The notes under the pieces: model-generated
What the model saw: only the letters and a program-made list of their open reading frames with translations
Databases searched by the model: none
What the model was told of the DNA's origin: nothing
In this document: positions 1 to 40,135 of the stretch, piece by piece
Layout of the letters: each line of letters starts with the position of its first letter
Position numbering within the stretch: the stretch's first letter is position 1
Translations under genes and position numbers: made by a program
Assembly (NCBI RefSeq): GCF_003790525.1
Contig: NZ_CP033635.1
Direction: 5' to 3' (one strand)
DNA: 64,000 nucleotides
From: Escherichia coli
GTDB taxonomy: Bacteria > Pseudomonadota > Gammaproteobacteria > Enterobacterales > Enterobacteriaceae

Positions 1-1376
1 CATGGATTGATGTGGTAAACCCTGCAACAGAGGCTGTCATTTCCCGCATTCCCGATGGTCAGGCCGAGGATGTCCGTAAGGCAATCGATGCAGCAGAACG
101 TGCACAACCAGAATGGGAAGCGTTGCCTGCTATTGAACGCGCCAGTTGGTTGCGCAAAATCTCCGCCGGGATCCGCAAACGCGCCAGCGAAATCAGTGCG
201 CTGATTGTTGAAGAAGGGGGCAAGATCCAGCAGCTGGCTGAAGTCGAAGTGGCTTTTACTGCGGACTATATCGATTACATGGCGGAGTGGGCACGGCGTT
301 ATGAAGGCGAGATTATTCAAAGCGATCGTCCAGGAGAAAATATTCTTCTGTTTAAACGTGCGCTTGGCGTGACTACCGGCATTCTGCCGTGGAACTTCCC
401 GTTCTTCCTCATTGCCCGCAAAATGGCCCCCGCTCTTTTGACCGGTAATACCATCGTCATTAAACCCAGTGAATTTACGCCAAACAATGCGATTGCATTC
501 GCCAAAATTGTCGATGAAATAGGCCTTCCGCGCGGCGTGTTTAACCTTGTTCTGGGGCGTGGTGAAACCGTTGGGCAAGAACTGGCGGGTAACCCAAAGG
601 TCGCAATGGTCAGTATGACAGGCAGCGTCTCTGCAGGTGAAAAGATTATGGCGACTGCGGCGAAAAACATCACCAAAGTGTGCCTGGAATTGGGGGGTAA
701 AGCACCGGCTATCGTAATGGACGATGCCGATCTTGAACTGGCAGTCAAAGCCATCGTTGATTCACGCGTTATTAATAGTGGGCAAGTGTGTAACTGTGCA
801 GAACGTGTTTATGTACAGAAAGGCATTTATGATCAGTTTGTCAATCGGCTGGGTGAAGCGTTGCAGGCGGTTCAATTTGGTAACCCCGCTGAACGCAACG
901 ACATTGCGATGGGGCCGTTGATTAACGCCGCGGCGCTGGAAAGGGTCGAGCAAAAAGTGGCGCGCGCAGTAGAAGAAGGGGCGAGAGTGGCGTTGGGTGG
1001 CAAAGCGGTAGAGGGGAAAGGATATTATTATCCGCCGACATTGCTGCTGGATGTTCGCCAGGAAATGTCGATTATGCATGAGGAAACCTTTGGCCCGGTT
1101 CTGCCGGTGGTCGCATTTGATACGCTGGAAGAGGCTATCTCAATGGCGAATGATAGTGATTACGGCCTGACCTCATCAATCTATACCCAAAATCTGAACG
1201 TCGCGATGAAAGCCATTAACGGGCTGAAGTTTGGTGAAACTTACATCAACCGTGAAAACTTCGAAGCTATGCAAGGCTTCCACGCCGGATGGCGTAAATC
1301 TGGTATTGGCGGCGCAGATGGTAAACATGGCCTGCATGAATATCTGCAGACCCAGGTGGTTTATTTACAGTCTTAA
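1..1376 (+). CDS. aldA: Aldehyde dehydrogenase A (lactaldehyde/glycolaldehyde dehydrogenase), 3' portion; 5' end lies upstream of the window
   Basis: ORF 12..1376 translation matches AldA C-terminal ~455 aa (catalytic Cys/Glu region, ends VVYLQS); reading frame is open to window start. Confidence 0.95.
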   Translation, partial: WIDVVNPATEAVISRIPDGQAEDVRKAIDAAERAQPEWEALPAIERASWLRKISAGIRKRASEISALIVEEGGKIQQLAEVEVAFTADYIDYMAEWARRYEGEIIQSDRPGENILLFKRALGVTTGILPWNFPFFLIARKMAPALLTGNTIVIKPSEFTPNNAIAFAKIVDEIGLPRGVFNLVLGRGETVGQELAGNPKVAMVSMTGSVSAGEKIMATAAKNITKVCLELGGKAPAIVMDDADLELAVKAIVDSRVINSGQVCNCAERVYVQKGIYDQFVNRLGEALQAVQFGNPAERNDIAMGPLINAAALERVEQKVARAVEEGARVALGGKAVEGKGYYYPPTLLLDVRQEMSIMHEETFGPVLPVVAFDTLEEAISMANDSDYGLTSSIYTQNLNVAMKAINGLKFGETYINRENFEAMQGFHAGWRKSGIGGADGKHGLHEYLQTQVVYLQS

Positions 1377-1386
1377 TGAGTGGAAG

Positions 1387-1409
1387 AGGCGGAGGTTTTT
1401 CCTCCGCCT
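1387..1409. terminator. Hairpin shared by convergent aldA and gapC (aggcggagg-ttttt-cctccgcct)
   Basis: Perfect 9-bp inverted repeat with T5 loop/run located between the two converging stop codons. Confidence 0.6.
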
Positions 1410-1416
1410 GTGTGCG

Positions 1417-2418
1417 TCAGAGTTTAGCGAATTTTTCGAGGGTGCGAATGAGCTGTGTGACGAAGCCATATTCGTTATCGTACCAGGCGACCGTTTTCAC
1501 CAGTTGTAAATCGCCCACGGCGGTAATTTCCGTTTGCGTGGCATCAAACACCGAACCGAAATGGCTGCCAATGATATCGGAAGAGACTATTTCTTCATCG
1601 GTATAACCAAATGACTCGTTATTGGTGGTTGCTTGTTTAAGTGCGTTATTCACCTCTTCGGCAGTCACTTTTTTTCCGAGAATGGACACCAGCTCAGTGA
1701 CCGAACCTGTTTTCACCGGCACGCGTTGCGCATGACCTTTCAGTTTGCCGCTCAGTTCCGGGATCACCAGACCAATGGCTTTTGCCGCACCTGTAGTGTG
1801 GGGAATGATATTTTCTGCCGCTGCACGTGAAGCGCGTAGATCTTTACCTCGCGGACCATCCACCAGTGACTGAGTGCCGGTATAGGCATGAATGGTCGTC
1901 ATCGTGCCGACTTCTATTCCGAAACTGTCGTGCAAGGCTTTGGCCATCGGTGCAAGACAGTTAGTGGTGCATGACGCCACGGAAACAATGGTGTCGTTGC
2001 CATCCAGTGTGTCGTCATTGACGTTATAAACGATGGTTTTCATTTCACCGGCAGGGGCGGAAATCAACACCTTCTTCGCACCAGCATCAAGGTGCGCCTG
2101 CGATTTCTCGGCGGAGGTATAAAAGCCAGTACATTCGACAATGATTTCTGCGCCTTTCGCTTTCCATGGAATATTTTTAGCCTCTTTTTCGGCGTAAACC
2201 GCGATACTTTTTCCATCAACGATAAGTGAATCTTCCGTAAAATCAACGCTCCAGGGGAACGGTCCGTAGTTTGAATCATGTTTCAACAGGTAGGCGAGAA
2301 TTTTTGGGGAAGTGAGATCATTAATAGCAACAATGTCTATGTTGCTTTTGACTTCAAGTAATCGACGCAACACCAGTCGACCGATACGACCAAAACCGTT
2401 AATACCAACTTTACTCAT
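1417..2418 (-). CDS. gapC: Glyceraldehyde-3-phosphate dehydrogenase C, intact 333-aa reading frame
   Basis: ORF translation has GAPDH hallmarks (NGFGRIGR Rossmann motif, SCTTNCLAP active site); uninterrupted here. Confidence 0.9.
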
Positions 2419-2606
2419 GGTCTTCTCCTGTCAGGAACGTTCGGATGAAAATTGATCCTTTCCAGGCTTAGACCAGGATGGCGGGATGGGCAATCTACAT
2501 TCTTGCCGTGAAACGTAACGTACTGAAAACGGGTGAACAATATTTAATGAAATTTTAAGAAAAGCTCGTTATGTTAACGGAAAATTATGTTAAAGCAGGA
2601 AATGTT

Positions 2607-3137
2607 ATGGAAAGTAAATATTCAAGGTTACAAATCGGCATTCACTGGCTGGTCTTTTTGCTGGTTATCGCAGCGTATTGCGCAATGGAGTTTCGTGGTT
2701 TTTTCCCACGTGGCGATAGGCCGCTTATCAACATGATTCATGTTTCCTGTGGCATCTCAATTCTCGTGCTGATGGTTGTTCGTCTTTTGTTAAGGCTTAA
2801 ATACCCAACTCCGCCGATTGTACCTAAACCAAAACCGATGATGACGGGACTGGCGCATTTGGGACATTTGGTGATCTATCTCCTGTTTATTGCGCTGCCA
2901 GTGATTGGTTTGGTGATGATGTATAACCGGGGCAACCCGTGGTCTGCGTTTGGTATGACAATGCCTTATGCAGCAGAGGCCAATTTCGAACGGGTTGATA
3001 GCTTAAAGTGGTGGCATGAGACGCTGGCGAATCTGGGATATTTTGTCATCGGGTTGCACGCTGCGGCTGCACTGGCACACCACTATTTCTGGAAGGACAA
3101 CACACTTCTACGCATGATGCCGCGTAAACGTTCCTGA
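2607..3137 (+). CDS. cybB: Cytochrome b561
   Basis: ORF 2571..3137; internal start MESKYSRLQIGIHW at 2607 matches CybB N-terminus (176 aa, multi-TM haem protein). Confidence 0.92.
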   Translation: MESKYSRLQIGIHWLVFLLVIAAYCAMEFRGFFPRGDRPLINMIHVSCGISILVLMVVRLLLRLKYPTPPIVPKPKPMMTGLAHLGHLVIYLLFIALPVIGLVMMYNRGNPWSAFGMTMPYAAEANFERVDSLKWWHETLANLGYFVIGLHAAAALAHHYFWKDNTLLRMMPRKRS

Positions 3138-3147
3138 AGGATATTTA

Positions 3148-3211
3148 AAGAAAACGCCTGTACTAAAACCGACCCGTGGTACAGGCGAAGAATACGGGTC
3201 TACATCGGAAG
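3148..3211 (-). ncRNA. rydC: RydC small regulatory RNA (Hfq-dependent, pseudoknot)
   Basis: Reverse complement reads CTTCCGATGTAGACCCGTATTCTTCGCCTGTACCACGGGTCGGTTTTAGTACAGGCGTTTTCTT, the 64-nt RydC sequence as I recall it, in the cybB-ydcA intergenic region. Confidence 0.8.
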
Positions 3212-3626: not shown

Positions 3627-3822
<196 letters not shown>

Positions 3823-3834
<12 letters not shown>

Positions 3835-3885
3835 TCGTTGGCCTCGGTTGATAGAAATATTGGTCGGGGCCTTCGTCTTTCTGAT
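3823..3885 (+). ncRNA. sokB: SokB antisense RNA (antitoxin of hokB/mokB); boundaries approximate
   Basis: Position antisense to the mokB RBS/start as in hok/sok loci; exact 5'/3' ends not determinable by eye. Confidence 0.35.
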
Positions 3886-4108
3886 TCCCGGTTAGCCTGA
3901 AAACAGAAAGTCTCAGGCACCCGTGAGCATCCTATGTGGTTTCCTTAAGGACGAAAATAATCACCTGACGAAATTGCGTGCTGTTTTCCAGAATTTTTCG
4001 TCATTCGGTTTAGCCAGTTTAATCATTCGTTACTCTCTTCATTCCAATGGCATTATTCTTCTCTGCCATAATTGTTGTAAAAATGTGACGCAAAGAGGTT
4101 TTTGGTCG

Positions 4109-4174: not shown

Positions 4175-5815
4175 ATGAATACAACTCCCTCACAGCGATT
4201 AGGTTTTTTGCATCACATCAGGCTGGTTCCGTTATTTGCCTGCATTCTTGGCGGTATCTTAGTTCTATTCGCATTAAGTTCTGCTCTGGCTGGCTATTTC
4301 CTCTGGCAGGCCGATCGCGATCAGCGTGATGTTACTGCGGAGATTGAGATTCGGACCGGGTTAGCGAACAGTTCAGATTTTTTGCGTTCAGCCCGGATCA
4401 ATATGATTCAGGCCGGGGCAGCGAGTCGTATTGCGGAAATGGAAGCAATGAAGCGAAATATTGCGCAAGCCGAATCGGAGATTAAACAGTCGCAGCAAGG
4501 TTATCGTGCTTATCAGAATCGACCGGTGAAAACACCTGCTGATGAAGCCCTCGACACTGAATTAAATCAACGCTTCCAGGCTTATATCACGGGTATGCAA
4601 CCGATGTTGAAATATGCCAAAAATGGCATGTTTGAAGCGATTATCAATCATGAAAGTGAGCAGATCCGACCGCTGGATAATGCTTATACCGATATTTTGA
4701 ACAAAGCCGTTAAGATACGTAGCACCAGAGCCAACCAACTGGCGGAACTGGCCCATCAGCGCACCCGCCTGGGTGGGATGTTCATGATTGGCGCGTTTGT
4801 GCTTGCCCTGGTGATGACGCTGATAACATTTATGGTGCTACGTCGGATCGTCATTCGTCCACTGCAAAATGCCGCACAACGGATTGAAAAAATCGCCAGT
4901 GGCGATCTGACGATGAATGATGAACCGGCGGGTCGTAATGAAATCGGTCGCTTAAGTCGTCATTTACAGCAAATGCAGCATTCACTGGGGATGACTGTAG
5001 GGACCGTTCGACAGGGCGCGGAAGAGATTTATCGTGGCACCAGCGAAATTTCAGCTGGCAATGCGGACCTGTCATCTCGCACCGAAGAACAAGCGGCGGC
5101 TATCGAACAAACTGCCGCCAGCATGGAGCAACTCACTGCGACGGTGAAACAGAATGCGGATAACGCGCATCATGCCAGCAAACTGGCGCAGGAGGCTTCT
5201 ATTAAAGCCAGCGATGGCGGGCAGATGGTTTCCGGTGTAGTAAAAACGATGGGCGCTATCTCCACGAGTTCGAAGAAAATTTCTGAGATCACCGCCGTCA
5301 TCAACAGTATTGCTTTCCAGACGAATATTCTGGCACTGAATGCTGCCGTTGAAGCCGCGCGAGCGGGTGAGCAAGGACGTGGATTTGCCGTTGTCGCCAG
5401 CGAAGTACGGACACTCGCAAGCCGCAGCGCTCAGGCGGCGAAAGAGATTGAAGGCTTGATCAGTGAATCAGTCAGGTTAATTGACCTGGGGTCGGATGAG
5501 GTGGCAACGGCAGGGAAAACCATGAGCACTATTGTTGATGCCGTCGCGAGTGTCACACATATCATGCAGGAAATCGCCGCCGCCTCGGATGAACAAAGTA
5601 GAGGCATAACGCAGGTTAGCCAGGCGATTTCTGAAATGGATAAGGTGACGCAACAGAATGCTTCTCTGGTAGAAGAGGCCTCAGCGGCGGCGGTGTCCCT
5701 TGAAGAACAGGCGGCACGATTAACTGAGGCGGTGGACGTATTCCGTCTGAACAAACATTCTGTGTCGGCAGAACCTCGCGGAGCGGGTGAACCAGTTAGT
5801 TTCGCTACGGTGTGA
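4175..5815 (+). CDS. trg: Methyl-accepting chemotaxis protein III (ribose/galactose sensor)
   Basis: 546-aa ORF with two TM segments, HAMP domain and conserved MCP signalling domain ([34 protein letters not shown]). Confidence 0.95.
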
Positions 5816-14866: not shown

Positions 14867-15168
14867 TTATCGGTTTCTGTCAGCGATTAAATTCAACACC
14901 ACGTAACAAACGCCTCCGGCAATTAATCCCCAAAACGCAGAACCAATCCCGACCAGCGTCAATCCACTTGCCGTTACCAGAAATGCCACCACCGCCGCGT
15001 CGCGCTCACGCTCATTATGCAGCGCCTGATACAAACTGCCGCCAATGGTACTCAACAGCGCCAGACCTGCCAGCATCTGGATCCAACTTACGGGCAGGGT
15101 AGTCATCATCCCGGTAATGGCACTACCAAACAGACCTGCGAGCAAATAGAAAATGCCTGCAACGGCAG
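14867..15168 (-). pseudogene. ydcO: ydcO (BenE-family benzoate transporter) C-terminal fragment, separated from the rest of the gene by IS4
   Basis: Minus-strand frame ...LIGITAVAGIFYLLAGLFGSAITGMMTTLPVSWIQMLAGLALL...NLIADRNR* is open up to the IS4 left end; hydrophobic transporter C-terminus. Confidence 0.8.
15157..15168. repeat. IS4 target-site duplication, left copy (CTGCAACGGCAG)
   Basis: Identical 12-mer directly abuts both IS4 termini (second copy 16594..16605). Confidence 0.85.
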
Positions 15169-16593
15169 TAATGCCGATCAGTTAAGGATCAGTTGACCGA
15201 TCCAGTGGCTGTGTAAGAATCCGGAAACGCTCACTTGTTTCCGGATTTTTTATGCACATTGGACAGGCTCTTGATCTGGTATCCCGTTACGATTCTCTGC
15301 GTAACCCACTGACTTCTCTGGGGGATTACCTCGACCCCGAACTCATCTCTCGTTGCCTTGCCGAATCAGGTACTGTAACGCTACGCAAGCGCCGTCTTCC
15401 CCTCGAAATGATGGTCTGGTGTATTGTTGGCATGGCGCTTGAGCGTAAAGAACCTCTTCACCAGATTGTGAATCGCCTGGACATCATGCTGCCGGGCAAT
15501 CGCCCCTTCGTTGCCCCCAGTGCCGTTATTCAGGCCCGCCAGCGCCTGGGAAGTGAGGCTGTCCGCCGCGTGTTCACGAAAACAGCGCAGCTCTGGCATA
15601 ACGCCACGCCGCATCCGCACTGGTGCGGCCTGACCCTGCTGGCCATCGATGGTGTGTTCTGGCGCACACCGGATACACCAGAGAACGATGCAGCCTTCCC
15701 CCGCCAGACACATGCCGGGAACCCGGCGCTCTACCCGCAGGTCAAAATGGTCTGCCAGATGGAACTGACCAGCCATCTGCTGACGGCTGCAGCCTTCGGC
15801 ACGATGAAGAACAGCGAAAATGAGCTTGCTGAGCAACTTATAGAACAAACCGGCGATAACACTCTGACGTTAATGGATAAAGGTTATTACTCACTGGGAC
15901 TGTTAAATGCCTGGAGCCTGGCGGGAGAACACCGCCACTGGATGATACCTCTCAGAAAGGGAGCGCAATATGAAGAGATCAGAAAACTGGGTAAAGGCGA
16001 TCATCTGGTGAAGCTGAAAACCAGCCCGCAGGCACGAAAAAAGTGGCCGGGACTGGGAAATGAAGTGACAGCCCGCCTGCTGACCGTGACGCGCAAAGGA
16101 AAAGTCTGCCATCTGCTGACGTCGATGACGGACGCCATGCGCTTCCCCGGAGGAGAAATGGCGGATCTGTACAGTCATCGCTGGGAAATCGAACTGGGAT
16201 ACAGGGAGATAAAACAGACGATGCAACTGAGCAGGCTGACGCTGAGAAGTAAAAAACCGGAGCTTGTGGAGCAAGAGCTGTGGGGTGTCTTACTGGCTTA
16301 TAATCTGGTGAGATATCAGATGATTAAAATGGCAGAACATCTGAAAGGTTACTGGCCGAATCAACTGAGTTTCTCAGAATCATGTGGAATGGTGATGAGA
16401 ATGCTGATGACATTGCAGGGCGCTTCACCGGGACGTATACCGGAGCTGATGCGCGATCTTGCAAGTATGGGACAACTTGTGAAATTACCGACAAGAAGGG
16501 AAAGGGCCTTCCCGAGAGTGGTAAAGGAGAGGCCCTGGAAATACCCCACAGCCCCGAAAAAGAGCCAGTCAGTTGCTTAACTGACTGGCATTA
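15169..16593 (+). mobile_element. IS4 insertion sequence (1425 bp) with 18-bp imperfect terminal inverted repeats
   Basis: Left end TAATGCCGATCAGTTAAG, right end CTTAACTGACTGGCATTA; encodes a 442-aa IS4-family transposase; flanked by 12-bp direct repeats. Confidence 0.9.
15252..16580 (+). CDS. insG: IS4 transposase (DDE; Y-x2-R-x3-E-x6-K signature [16 protein letters not shown])
   Basis: 442-aa ORF beginning [28 protein letters not shown], which I recognise as IS4 InsG. Confidence 0.9.
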
Positions 16594-16605
16594 CTGCAAC
16601 GGCAG
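16594..16605. repeat. IS4 target-site duplication, right copy (CTGCAACGGCAG)
   Basis: Identical to 15157..15168. Confidence 0.85.
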
Positions 16606-17476
16606 CGGCCAGCCAACGTTGATCTTTATCCGGATGCGCTTCCGGGCTTTGGCAAATAGCCGCGGTGATTGCCGCAATACCGACGGAATAAACGCCGAAA
16701 GGGGAAAAAACCAGTGCCAGCAATCCAGTAAATACAATTAATGGCGAAACAGGAGCCGAATATCCGGCTGCTTTCATTGCTGCGATACCCGGTGCGTTTT
16801 GCGATGCCATCGTCACCAGAAAAAGGGGGAGTGCAACGCTCAGGCTGTGAGCAAACGAAAAATCAGGGCTAATATAAGTGGGGAGAACGGGTTTAAAGAC
16901 AACATCAGTTGTGACAATGTCACCTTGCGCGATAACGATCACGACCCCAATAATCATCGCGGCAATTACCGCATAGCGCGGCGCAACGGCCCTGGTTGCC
17001 AGCCATACCAGCAACATACTGCCACACAACGTAAATTGACCATCCAGGCTCGCAAACGCCTGTAAACCAAAGCGTAATAAAATCCCGGCAAGCATTGCCG
17101 CCGCAAGCGAGTGCGGAATAATGCGCATCAGATGAGCAAAGAGTCCCGTTATGCCGCAGAGGACTATTAACGCGTTGGTGACAATAAAAACGCCGATGGT
17201 TTCGTTAAGTGTTAGTCCCTGCAATCCGGTGACCAACAAAGCCGCGCCAGGCGTTGACCATGCGGTGAGAACAGGTACGCGATACCATAATGTCAGAGCC
17301 AGCGTACTGACGCCCATTGCCAGCCCCAGCGCCGTCATCCAGCCAGAGATTTGTGCAGTGGTGGCTCCGGCGACAATCGCTGCTTGCCAGATTATTGCCG
17401 CTGAACTGGCGTAGCCAATTAATACCGCCAGAAACCCCGCCAGTAGCGTGGGTGGAGGAATAGAAAACAGACGCAT
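16594..17476 (-). pseudogene. ydcO: ydcO (BenE-family transporter) N-terminal portion, truncated by IS4
   Basis: Start MRLFSIPPPTLLAGFLAVLIGYASS with GAGG RBS; the frame runs into the IS4 right end and stops inside it; joining with 14867..15168 after removing one 12-bp repeat restores a ~391-codon gene. Confidence 0.8.
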
Positions 17477-17567
17477 AGTCACCTCGTGCGTTATAGCGTA
17501 CAGGCACCGTAGCATTTGTCCGTTATAACGCACAAGTGATAAACTTCCGTTTTGCCGGAGGAGTCGC

Positions 17568-38261: not shown

Positions 38262-38853
38262 TTATTTTTCCCATCGATTTCGCCCACTTTCTTTCGCCCG
38301 GTATAACGCAGCGTCGGCATCTGAAATAATTTGTTCAGCCGTTTTTGCGGGAGCAGAACAGGTAATCCCCTGACTAACCGTAACGAATGCATTAACAGCA
38401 GATGCCTGATGCGGGATAGCTGCCAGTTTAAGTTCTTGCTTCACTCTGGCTGCTACCGTCTCTGCTTCCGGCAATGTTGCATTAAAAAGTATGATGACAA
38501 ACTCTTCGCCACCATAACGGACAACAACATCCTCCGACTGGCGAGTTGAACGCTGTAGAGCGTCGGCAACTTGTATTAGACAACGATCCCCAGCAGGATG
38601 CCCGTAAGTGTCGTTGTAACGTTTAAAAAAATCGACATCCAGCATAATAAGAGCAAATGACCCGCCGTTATCTATCGCGTCGTGTAAGATACTGTTCATT
38701 GCACGTCGGTTTGCTATCCCAGTTAAAGGATCACGATGTGCTAATGCATCAAGGCGATTAATTAACTGGTTGTTATAACTGTTTTGTACCCATGCTTCTT
38801 CAAACCAACGTAACAAAATGAGTCGCCCACCATATAGCGCCAGTGAAAAAATA
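38262..38853 (-). pseudogene. Diguanylate cyclase (GGDEF domain, RYGGEEF active site), C-terminal part separated from its N-terminus by IS1
   Basis: Minus-strand frame ...SLALYGGRLILLRWFEEAW...DPLTGIANRRAM...RYGGEEFVIIL...LYRAKESGRNRWEK*; the apparent TTG start in the ORF track lies inside the IS1 inverted repeat. Confidence 0.8.
38846..38853. repeat. IS1 target-site duplication, left copy (AAAAAATA)
   Basis: Same 8-mer directly flanks the other IS1 end at 39622..39629. Confidence 0.7.
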
Positions 38854-38868
38854 GGTAATGACTCCAAC

Positions 38869-39372
38869 TTATTGATAGTGTTTTATGTTCAGATAATGCC
38901 CGATGACTTTGTCATGCAGCTCCACCGATTTTGAGAACGACAGCGACTTCCGTCCCAGCCGTGCCAGGTGCTGCCTCAGATTCAGGTTATGCCGCTCAAT
39001 TCGCTGCGTATATCGCTTGCTGATTACGTGCAGCTTTCCCTTCAGGCGGGATTCATACAGCGGCCAGCCATCCGTCATCCATATCACCACGTCAAAGGGT
39101 GACAGCAGGCTCATAAGACGCCCCAGCGTCGCCATCGTGCGTTCACCGAATACGTGCGCAACAACCGTCTTCCGGAGCCTGTCATACGCGTAAAACAGCC
39201 AGCGCTGGCGCGATTTAGCCCCGACATAGCCCCACTGTTCGTCCATTTCCGCACAGACGATGACGTCACTGCCCGGCTGTATGCGCGAGGTTACCGACTG
39301 CGGCCTGAGTTTTTTAAGTGACGTAAAATCGTGTTGAGGCCAACGCCCATAATGCGGGCTGTTGCCCGGCAT
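38869..39372 (-). CDS. insB: IS1 InsB (transposase catalytic part, expressed by -1 frameshift as InsAB')
   Basis: 167-aa [28 protein letters not shown]... recognised as IS1 InsB. Confidence 0.9.
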
Positions 39373-39566
39373 CCAACGCCATTCATGGCCATATCAATGA
39401 TTTTCTGGTGCGTACCGGGTTGAGAAGCGGTGTAAGTGAACTGCAGTTGCCATGTTTTACGGCAGTGAGAGCAGAGATAGCGCTGATGTCCGGCGGTGCT
39501 TTTGCCGTTACGCACCACCCCGTCAGTAGCTGAACAGGAGGGACAGCTGATAGAAACAGAAGCCAC
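39291..39566 (-). CDS. insA: IS1 InsA (zinc-finger repressor / transposase N-terminal part)
   Basis: 91-aa [46 protein letters not shown]... Confidence 0.9.
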
Positions 39567-39621
39567 TGGAGCACCTCAAAAACACCATCATATACTAAAT
39601 CAGTAAGTTGGCAGCATCACC

Positions 39622-40135
39622 AAAAAATACACCATACAACAGCAAAATGAATATTGATCTGTTGATTAAGCATAAGACTCGCTATTGGAGTGGTGAACCA
39701 TAAGGGAATGACAAATGCGAGCAATGATGGGGTATGGAAATAAAGTGCGATAACGCCACTAAGCATTAATAATACACATAGTGGATAAGCAAACTGCAGC
39801 GTCCAGTACGCAATAAAGTGATAACTACACCATGACCATAGCAGGCTCAGGGCAACTAATAGCACCTGGATAGGTAATGTTTTTTGCCGAGGGATGAGTA
39901 GTAAACCACTGCAAATCAGCAGAATACCCGTTGCAGATATATCAATAGAATGTATAAGGCTTTTTTCATTTAACCAGGGTGGAGTAAGGTCATTAAACAG
40001 AACACGGCGCAGCAAAATTATCAATGCAAAACTGACATTGATAAAAGCAAACCATGGCAAACTAATCGTCATGCCGCGAATAACCATATCGCGGCGGGTT
40101 TTCCATGAGTGATGCGTTTTTCTTCGTTCAGCCAT
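39622..40135 (-). pseudogene. Diguanylate cyclase N-terminal membrane-sensor portion (about 5 TM helices), truncated by IS1
   Basis: Frame MAERRKTHHSW...QINIHFAVVWCIF runs into the IS1 inverted repeat and stops there; in phase with 38262..38853 once IS1 and one 8-bp repeat are removed (about 366 aa). Confidence 0.75.

Follow-up and report, generated by a model that had tools for sequence, protein, structure and literature searches.

An intact gapC in an Escherichia coli of the SMS-3-5 lineage, probably encoding an accessory glyceraldehyde-3-phosphate dehydrogenase, and its young natural null allele in K-12

The stretch of Escherichia coli DNA considered here, 64,000 nucleotides long and referred to throughout as the window, carries near its beginning the gene gapC, which converges with aldA on one side and diverges from cybB on the other (Table 1). 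The order aldA, gapC, cybB, rydC, hokB/sokB, trg is the same in the window and in MG1655 K-12, where the orthologous locus, flanked by the same genes, holds the gapC pseudogene (b4493, formerly gapC_1/gapC_2). Both the position between aldA and cybB and the high DNA identity to K-12 gapC (29 differences in 1002 nt) identify the gene as the E. coli gapC orthologue. An intact gapC of 333 amino acids had been proposed at this place in a first-pass annotation of the DNA, and the list of open reading frames returns exactly its coordinates and length, on the minus strand; in our own translation the sole stop is codon 334. A hidden frameshift or premature stop was sought in the open reading frame list, in the translation and in an alignment to the solved structure PDB 7C5F, and none was found. 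Since that alignment is gapless from residue 1 to residue 333 (residues 20–352 of 7C5F) and identical at 332 of 333 positions, the single difference being I29V, no frameshift is concealed in the gene, which disposes of the subtle missed frameshift that the first-pass annotation had itself named as a possible refutation.

Table 1. Features of the window, with coordinates counted from its first letter.
Feature	Coordinates	Strand	Remarks
aldA	12..1376	plus	3′ end convergent with gapC
GC-rich hairpin	1387..1409		9-bp stem AGGCGGAGG / CCUCCGCCU, 5-nt loop; separates the stop codons of the convergent genes aldA and gapC
gapC	1417..2418	minus	uninterrupted open reading frame; ATG start, 333 codons, TGA stop
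A-run, codons 246–248	1675..1681 (gene nt 738–744)	minus	A7 in the window; A6 in K-12, frame shifted (codon 248)
K39stop site	2304 (gene nt 115)	minus	A in the window (AAA, Lys39); T in K-12 (TAA)
gapC–cybB divergent intergenic region	2419..2606	minus	188 bp; presumed gapC promoter region
Putative Shine–Dalgarno, AGGAG	2425..2429	minus	from consensus; 6 nt upstream of the gapC ATG, ...CCTGACAGGAGAAGACC ATG
Weak sigma-70-like site	2613..2584	minus	TTTCCA-18-CATAAT
cybB	2607..3137	plus	divergent from gapC
RydC sRNA	3148..3211		beyond cybB as in K-12; 92.5 bits
sok antitoxin RNA	3771..3922		hokB/sokB type I toxin–antitoxin locus; beyond cybB as in K-12; 105 bits
trg	4175..5815		beyond hokB/sok
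ydcO (BenE family), split	~14867..17515		two pseudogene fragments
IS4 transposase	~15252..16580		within ydcO
GGDEF-domain gene, split	38262..38867 and 39617..40135		diguanylate cyclase
IS1	38854..39621		768 bp; 8-bp junction overlap
InsB open reading frame	38869..39372	minus	in IS1
InsA open reading frame	39291..39566	minus	in IS1
Leucine-rich-repeat protein	53798..55054	minus	418 aa, intact; between narU and yddG
421-aa open reading frame	55117..56382	minus	narU–yddG interval
OmpC-like porin	56546..57646	minus	366 aa, intact; between narU and yddG

The first 25 kb of the window are 100% identical to strain SMS-3-5 (NC_010498.1) and to several human, surface-water, pangolin and chicken isolates, and over the whole 64 kb two SNPs and one extra IS1 are the sole differences from SMS-3-5. 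That IS1 splits a GGDEF-domain gene which is uninterrupted in SMS-3-5, so the window derives from a sub-line or very near relative of SMS-3-5 and not from the sequenced record itself; the IS4 that splits ydcO, by comparison, is common to both. In strain 2016C-3878, whose gapC allele is the same, an IS150 lies between trg and hokB, a position at which the window has none. Farther along, the interval between narU and yddG holds genes for a leucine-rich-repeat protein and an OmpC-like porin, and between them a 421-aa open reading frame that overlaps a partial leucine-rich-repeat pseudogene of the SMS-3-5 annotation. The K-12 counterparts of the genes in this interval (yddK, yddL) are presumably pseudogenes or fragments, and these genes may represent another case of degradation in K-12.

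Against the NCBIfam equivalog model for type I glyceraldehyde-3-phosphate dehydrogenase (GAPDH), TIGR01534, GapC scores 446.7 bits where the cut-off is 367.2, its residues 3–325 aligning to positions 1–330 of the 330 in the model; with such a score gapC is a real conserved gene and not a chance open reading frame. The complete catalytic motif set claimed in the first-pass annotation could be located residue by residue. The NAD-binding motif GFGRIG lies at 8–13 (the GxGxxG of the Rossmann fold) and N33-D34, with Asp34 inside VAINDL, follows it, both of them aligned with their GapA equivalents; the active site comprises S149-C150-T-T-N together with the catalytic H177, and TTGAAKA (208–214), R232 in QRVP and WYDNE near the C-terminus complete the set. 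Aspartate at position 34 is typical of NAD-specific GAPDHs.

The closest characterised relative is the E. coli GapC described as EcGAPDH1 (7C5F, with mutants 7C5G–7C5R; WP_000048667.1-type), which comes from the same locus and has the same length, Cys150 and His177. It has valine at residue 29, as do all the other alleles sampled, whereas the window protein has isoleucine (WP_000048646.1, common to SMS-3-5 and 2016C-3878), a conservative change. The purified enzyme is active on D-glyceraldehyde 3-phosphate, as followed by NADH formation, with a Km of 0.73 mM, and it loses its activity in the C150A mutant and drops 10^3- to 10^4-fold in C150S and H177A (PMC8615399). The housekeeping enzyme GapA (b1779) shares the fold, chemistry and motifs of the window GapC and aligns with it over the full length, but it is only 47% identical and is encoded at another locus. 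All but one of the 5426 complete E. coli genomes carry gapA (5425), which makes gapC truly a second GAPDH gene; in 5424 of them gapA shows at least 99% conservation, against a divergence among gapC alleles that reaches about 4–10%.

By analogy with GapA, the window enzyme would oxidise and phosphorylate glyceraldehyde 3-phosphate to 1,3-bisphosphoglycerate in an NAD-dependent reaction, in which a thioacyl intermediate would form on Cys150, with His177 acting as the base, before attack by phosphate; the usual tetramer is expected. That gapC in the window encodes a second functional GAPDH, raised as a possibility in the first-pass annotation, is now a well-supported prediction, given an active enzyme of the 7C5F type that differs by I29V only, the strong sequence constraint described below (dN/dS of 0.01–0.04) and the near-universality of gapA.

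How, then, does this allele relate to the one in K-12? The MG1655 gene is annotated as a 1001-bp pseudogene, and copies of the K-12 type are labelled "frameshifted; internal stop" by PGAP. In a global alignment, the window and K-12 genes differ at 29 positions, 25 of them synonymous (97.1% DNA identity), with R18G and I29V as the missense changes. The same pairwise comparison, which had been proposed as a check on the first reading, places the K-12 lesions at nt 115 and nt 738–744, neither of them in the window. The statement in the first-pass annotation that K-12 gapC is a frameshifted pseudogene was therefore correct as to the 1-nt deletion in the A-run and incomplete as to the rest, a nonsense codon being present at position 39 as well; the window gene is free of all three K-12 changes (K39stop, A7 to A6, and R18G). 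Compared with LD39-1, the nearest intact allele sampled, the K-12 haplotype shows only C52G (R18G), A115T (K39stop) and the deletion of A744, with no synonymous change, and it recurs base for base in a chicken isolate. These three lesions, the lack of synonymous change and the identical chicken-isolate copy establish the K-12 null allele as young, clonal and natural, a polymorphism of the species rather than a laboratory artefact. A literature summary (PMC2949598), in the passage that concerns gapC, implies instead that the loss originated in laboratory domestication.

The distribution of the two states was followed across 5426 complete E. coli genomes. The 1002-bp window gene finds a match in 5417 of them, 5409 of which align to 80% or more of the query, and no match in nine; 87 genomes reach 99% DNA identity to it or more. 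In a sample of 39 full-length matches taken at even steps, 32 span 1002 bp and seven span 1001 or 1000 bp. All six of the 1002-bp alleles that were fetched (96.1–97.9% identity, O157:H7 included) are intact and annotated as intact. Two shorter alleles, one in a chicken isolate from Korea and the other in a pig isolate from the UK, share precisely the lesions of K-12, to which the pig isolate (HCP30S3_I2) adds one deletion at nt 988. A 41-mer probe centred on codon 39, which seeds only when the central base agrees, reads AAA in 3715 genomes and the K-12 TAA in 1155, with 547 of the 5417 unresolved. Exact matches to probes for the A-run (64–65-mers) number 2675 for A7 and 1037 for A6, about 1,500 genomes having matched neither probe and some 170–190 of those matched being exact to neither. 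The K-12 null allele is thus present in about 19–21% of complete genomes (1037–1155 of 5426), figures which are lower bounds because nearby SNPs break the 28-nt seed, and an intact gapC is the usual state, found in about four of five. Among 40 sampled carriers of TAA, roughly 30 come from a host or the environment, namely human, pig, chicken, dog, cattle, housefly, bullfrog, sea water and sediment.

Further independent losses of gapC exist and look rare. In the raw-milk isolate SCPM-O-B-7615 (NZ_CP144926.1, 2501..4678), an IS1A has taken the place of the 3′ four-fifths of gapC and of the aldA 3′ end, an independent case in which an insertion sequence accompanies the loss of both genes. Records labelled as plasmids account for five of the 5429 matches to gapC and for two of those to gapA; these records may be mis-assigned replicons or plasmids with chromosomal segments.

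The signals around the gene offer a partial view of its expression. The intergenic region shared with cybB is identical to K-12 at 180 of 188 positions and differs from other alleles at 3–9 positions. A scan for the sigma-70 consensus upstream of gapC returned one weak site against a mean of 1.9 in shuffled sequence; since shuffled DNA does just as well, the position of the promoter does not follow from the sequence. Experimental reports are more informative. In MG1655, a ChIP-seq peak of sigma-S RNA polymerase lies between gapC_1 and cybB (PMC4447067), and gapC transcripts have been measured in EPEC, where mutation of csrA reduces their level (PMC6333774). According to a passage in PMC2949598, the gapC promoter is environmentally activated even in laboratory strains; the same passage cites Espinosa-Urgel & Kolter (1998) for an intact gapC in environmental isolates and a preference for expression in fresh water, work that is also among the citations in PMC1796617. 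At the other end of the gene, the hairpin between the aldA and gapC stops folds at −18.2 kcal/mol (z = −4.8 against 200 shuffles) and is plausible as a candidate bidirectional terminator; the consensus terminator scan passed it over because its T-tail is weak.

The coding sequence bears a clear mark of selection. Between the window allele and eight others plus K-12, Nei–Gojobori counts give 19–35 synonymous and 1–5 non-synonymous changes and a dN/dS of 0.011–0.042, which indicates strong purifying selection across the species. Neither the intact state nor the enzyme is new in itself: an intact gapC was published in 1998 and appears in RefSeq annotation, and both the structure and the activity of the enzyme have been determined. 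The exact window allele is an intact CDS in the SMS-3-5 RefSeq record ("gap", type I glyceraldehyde-3-phosphate dehydrogenase, WP_000048646.1) and the gene is likewise annotated as intact in 2016C-3878, so that the gapC of the window is already in public annotation. The addition made here concerns K-12, whose null allele is a natural haplotype of recent origin, borne by roughly one in five complete genomes, many of them those of wild isolates.

We consider it highly probable that the window holds an ordinary intact E. coli allele of gapC, encoding a conventional GAPDH that is likely an accessory, condition-specific isozyme. Several other explanations deserve weighing against it. That the intactness is an artefact, through an overlooked frameshift, an assembly error or a chance open reading frame, is scarcely credible: a search for support of this explanation found none, the protein aligns without gaps and over its full length to a solved structure, the 1002 bp are 100% identical in the independent complete genome of 2016C-3878, and the surrounding 25 kb are 100% identical in several more independent assemblies, including SMS-3-5, where the gene is an intact CDS. 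It is also very unlikely that GapC is a non-glycolytic paralogue, whether an erythrose-4-phosphate (E4P) dehydrogenase like Epd (GapB), an ArsJ-associated enzyme or an NADP-dependent one. Such paralogues do exist in the GAPDH superfamily, to which Epd and GapC both belong, and GapC gives sub-threshold matches to their models. These matches, however, fall far below the cut-offs, at 276.5 bits against 530.55 for the Epd model TIGR01532, 279.8 against 539 for its counterpart NF010058, and 307.3 against 450 for the ArsJ-associated model NF033735, and among the models scored only TIGR01534 is passed. Both identities were accordingly rejected, as was membership of the type II GAPDH family, on curated cut-offs. 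The neighbours of gapC are moreover aldA and cybB rather than arsJ, Asp34 is present, and an enzyme one residue away oxidises glyceraldehyde 3-phosphate with formation of NADH.

Somewhat more weight, though still little, attaches to the idea that gapC is intact yet effectively silent, a cryptic gene that makes no physiological contribution and is decaying towards the pseudogene state seen in K-12. The poor consensus match of the promoter region would fit, as would the null allele in 1037–1155 of 5426 genomes with its many wild hosts, the other independent losses (the IS1-associated truncation in SCPM-O-B-7615 and the further deletion in HCP30S3_I2) and a GapA that is universal and at least 99% conserved. 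Yet a gene long free of selection would not show a dN/dS of 0.01–0.04, gapC is kept in 5417 of 5426 genomes, and promoter activity and transcripts have been reported in the literature. Since the K-12 null differs from its nearest sampled intact relative by three lesions only, the loss is recent and limited to a lineage rather than general. We therefore regard the silent gene as improbable and retain the accessory, condition-specific isozyme, for which we infer, as regards expression and role in this strain, that, with GapA carrying the bulk glycolytic flux, GapC would most likely serve under particular conditions, such as fresh water and probably, via sigma-S, stationary phase or stress. The window, as a member of the SMS-3-5 lineage, would then keep the ancestral functional gene.

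The presence of the null in about a fifth of genomes, wild isolates included, indicates that gapC is dispensable in at least some niches. A young null haplotype spread over some 20% of genomes, from humans, livestock and insects to sea water and sediment, amid purifying selection elsewhere, suggests a more specific and more tentative proposal, namely that gapC is a niche-specific fitness gene (e.g., for survival in cold or fresh water outside the host, a suggestion of the 1998 work) whose loss in one successful lineage was neutral or favoured in the gut. The window's own lineage includes a surface-water isolate, strain SBF22, and SMS-3-5 itself is an environmental isolate. If this proposal, which we put forward only as one possibility, were true, an environmental lineage such as that of the window would be expected to need gapC.

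The K-12 gapC lesion is a natural lineage marker, and the occasional description of it as a result of domestication in the laboratory does not hold. More broadly, the case of gapC guards against taking K-12 as the norm for E. coli, and metabolic models and gapA-knockout designs based on K-12 are not automatically transferable to strains with an intact gapC.
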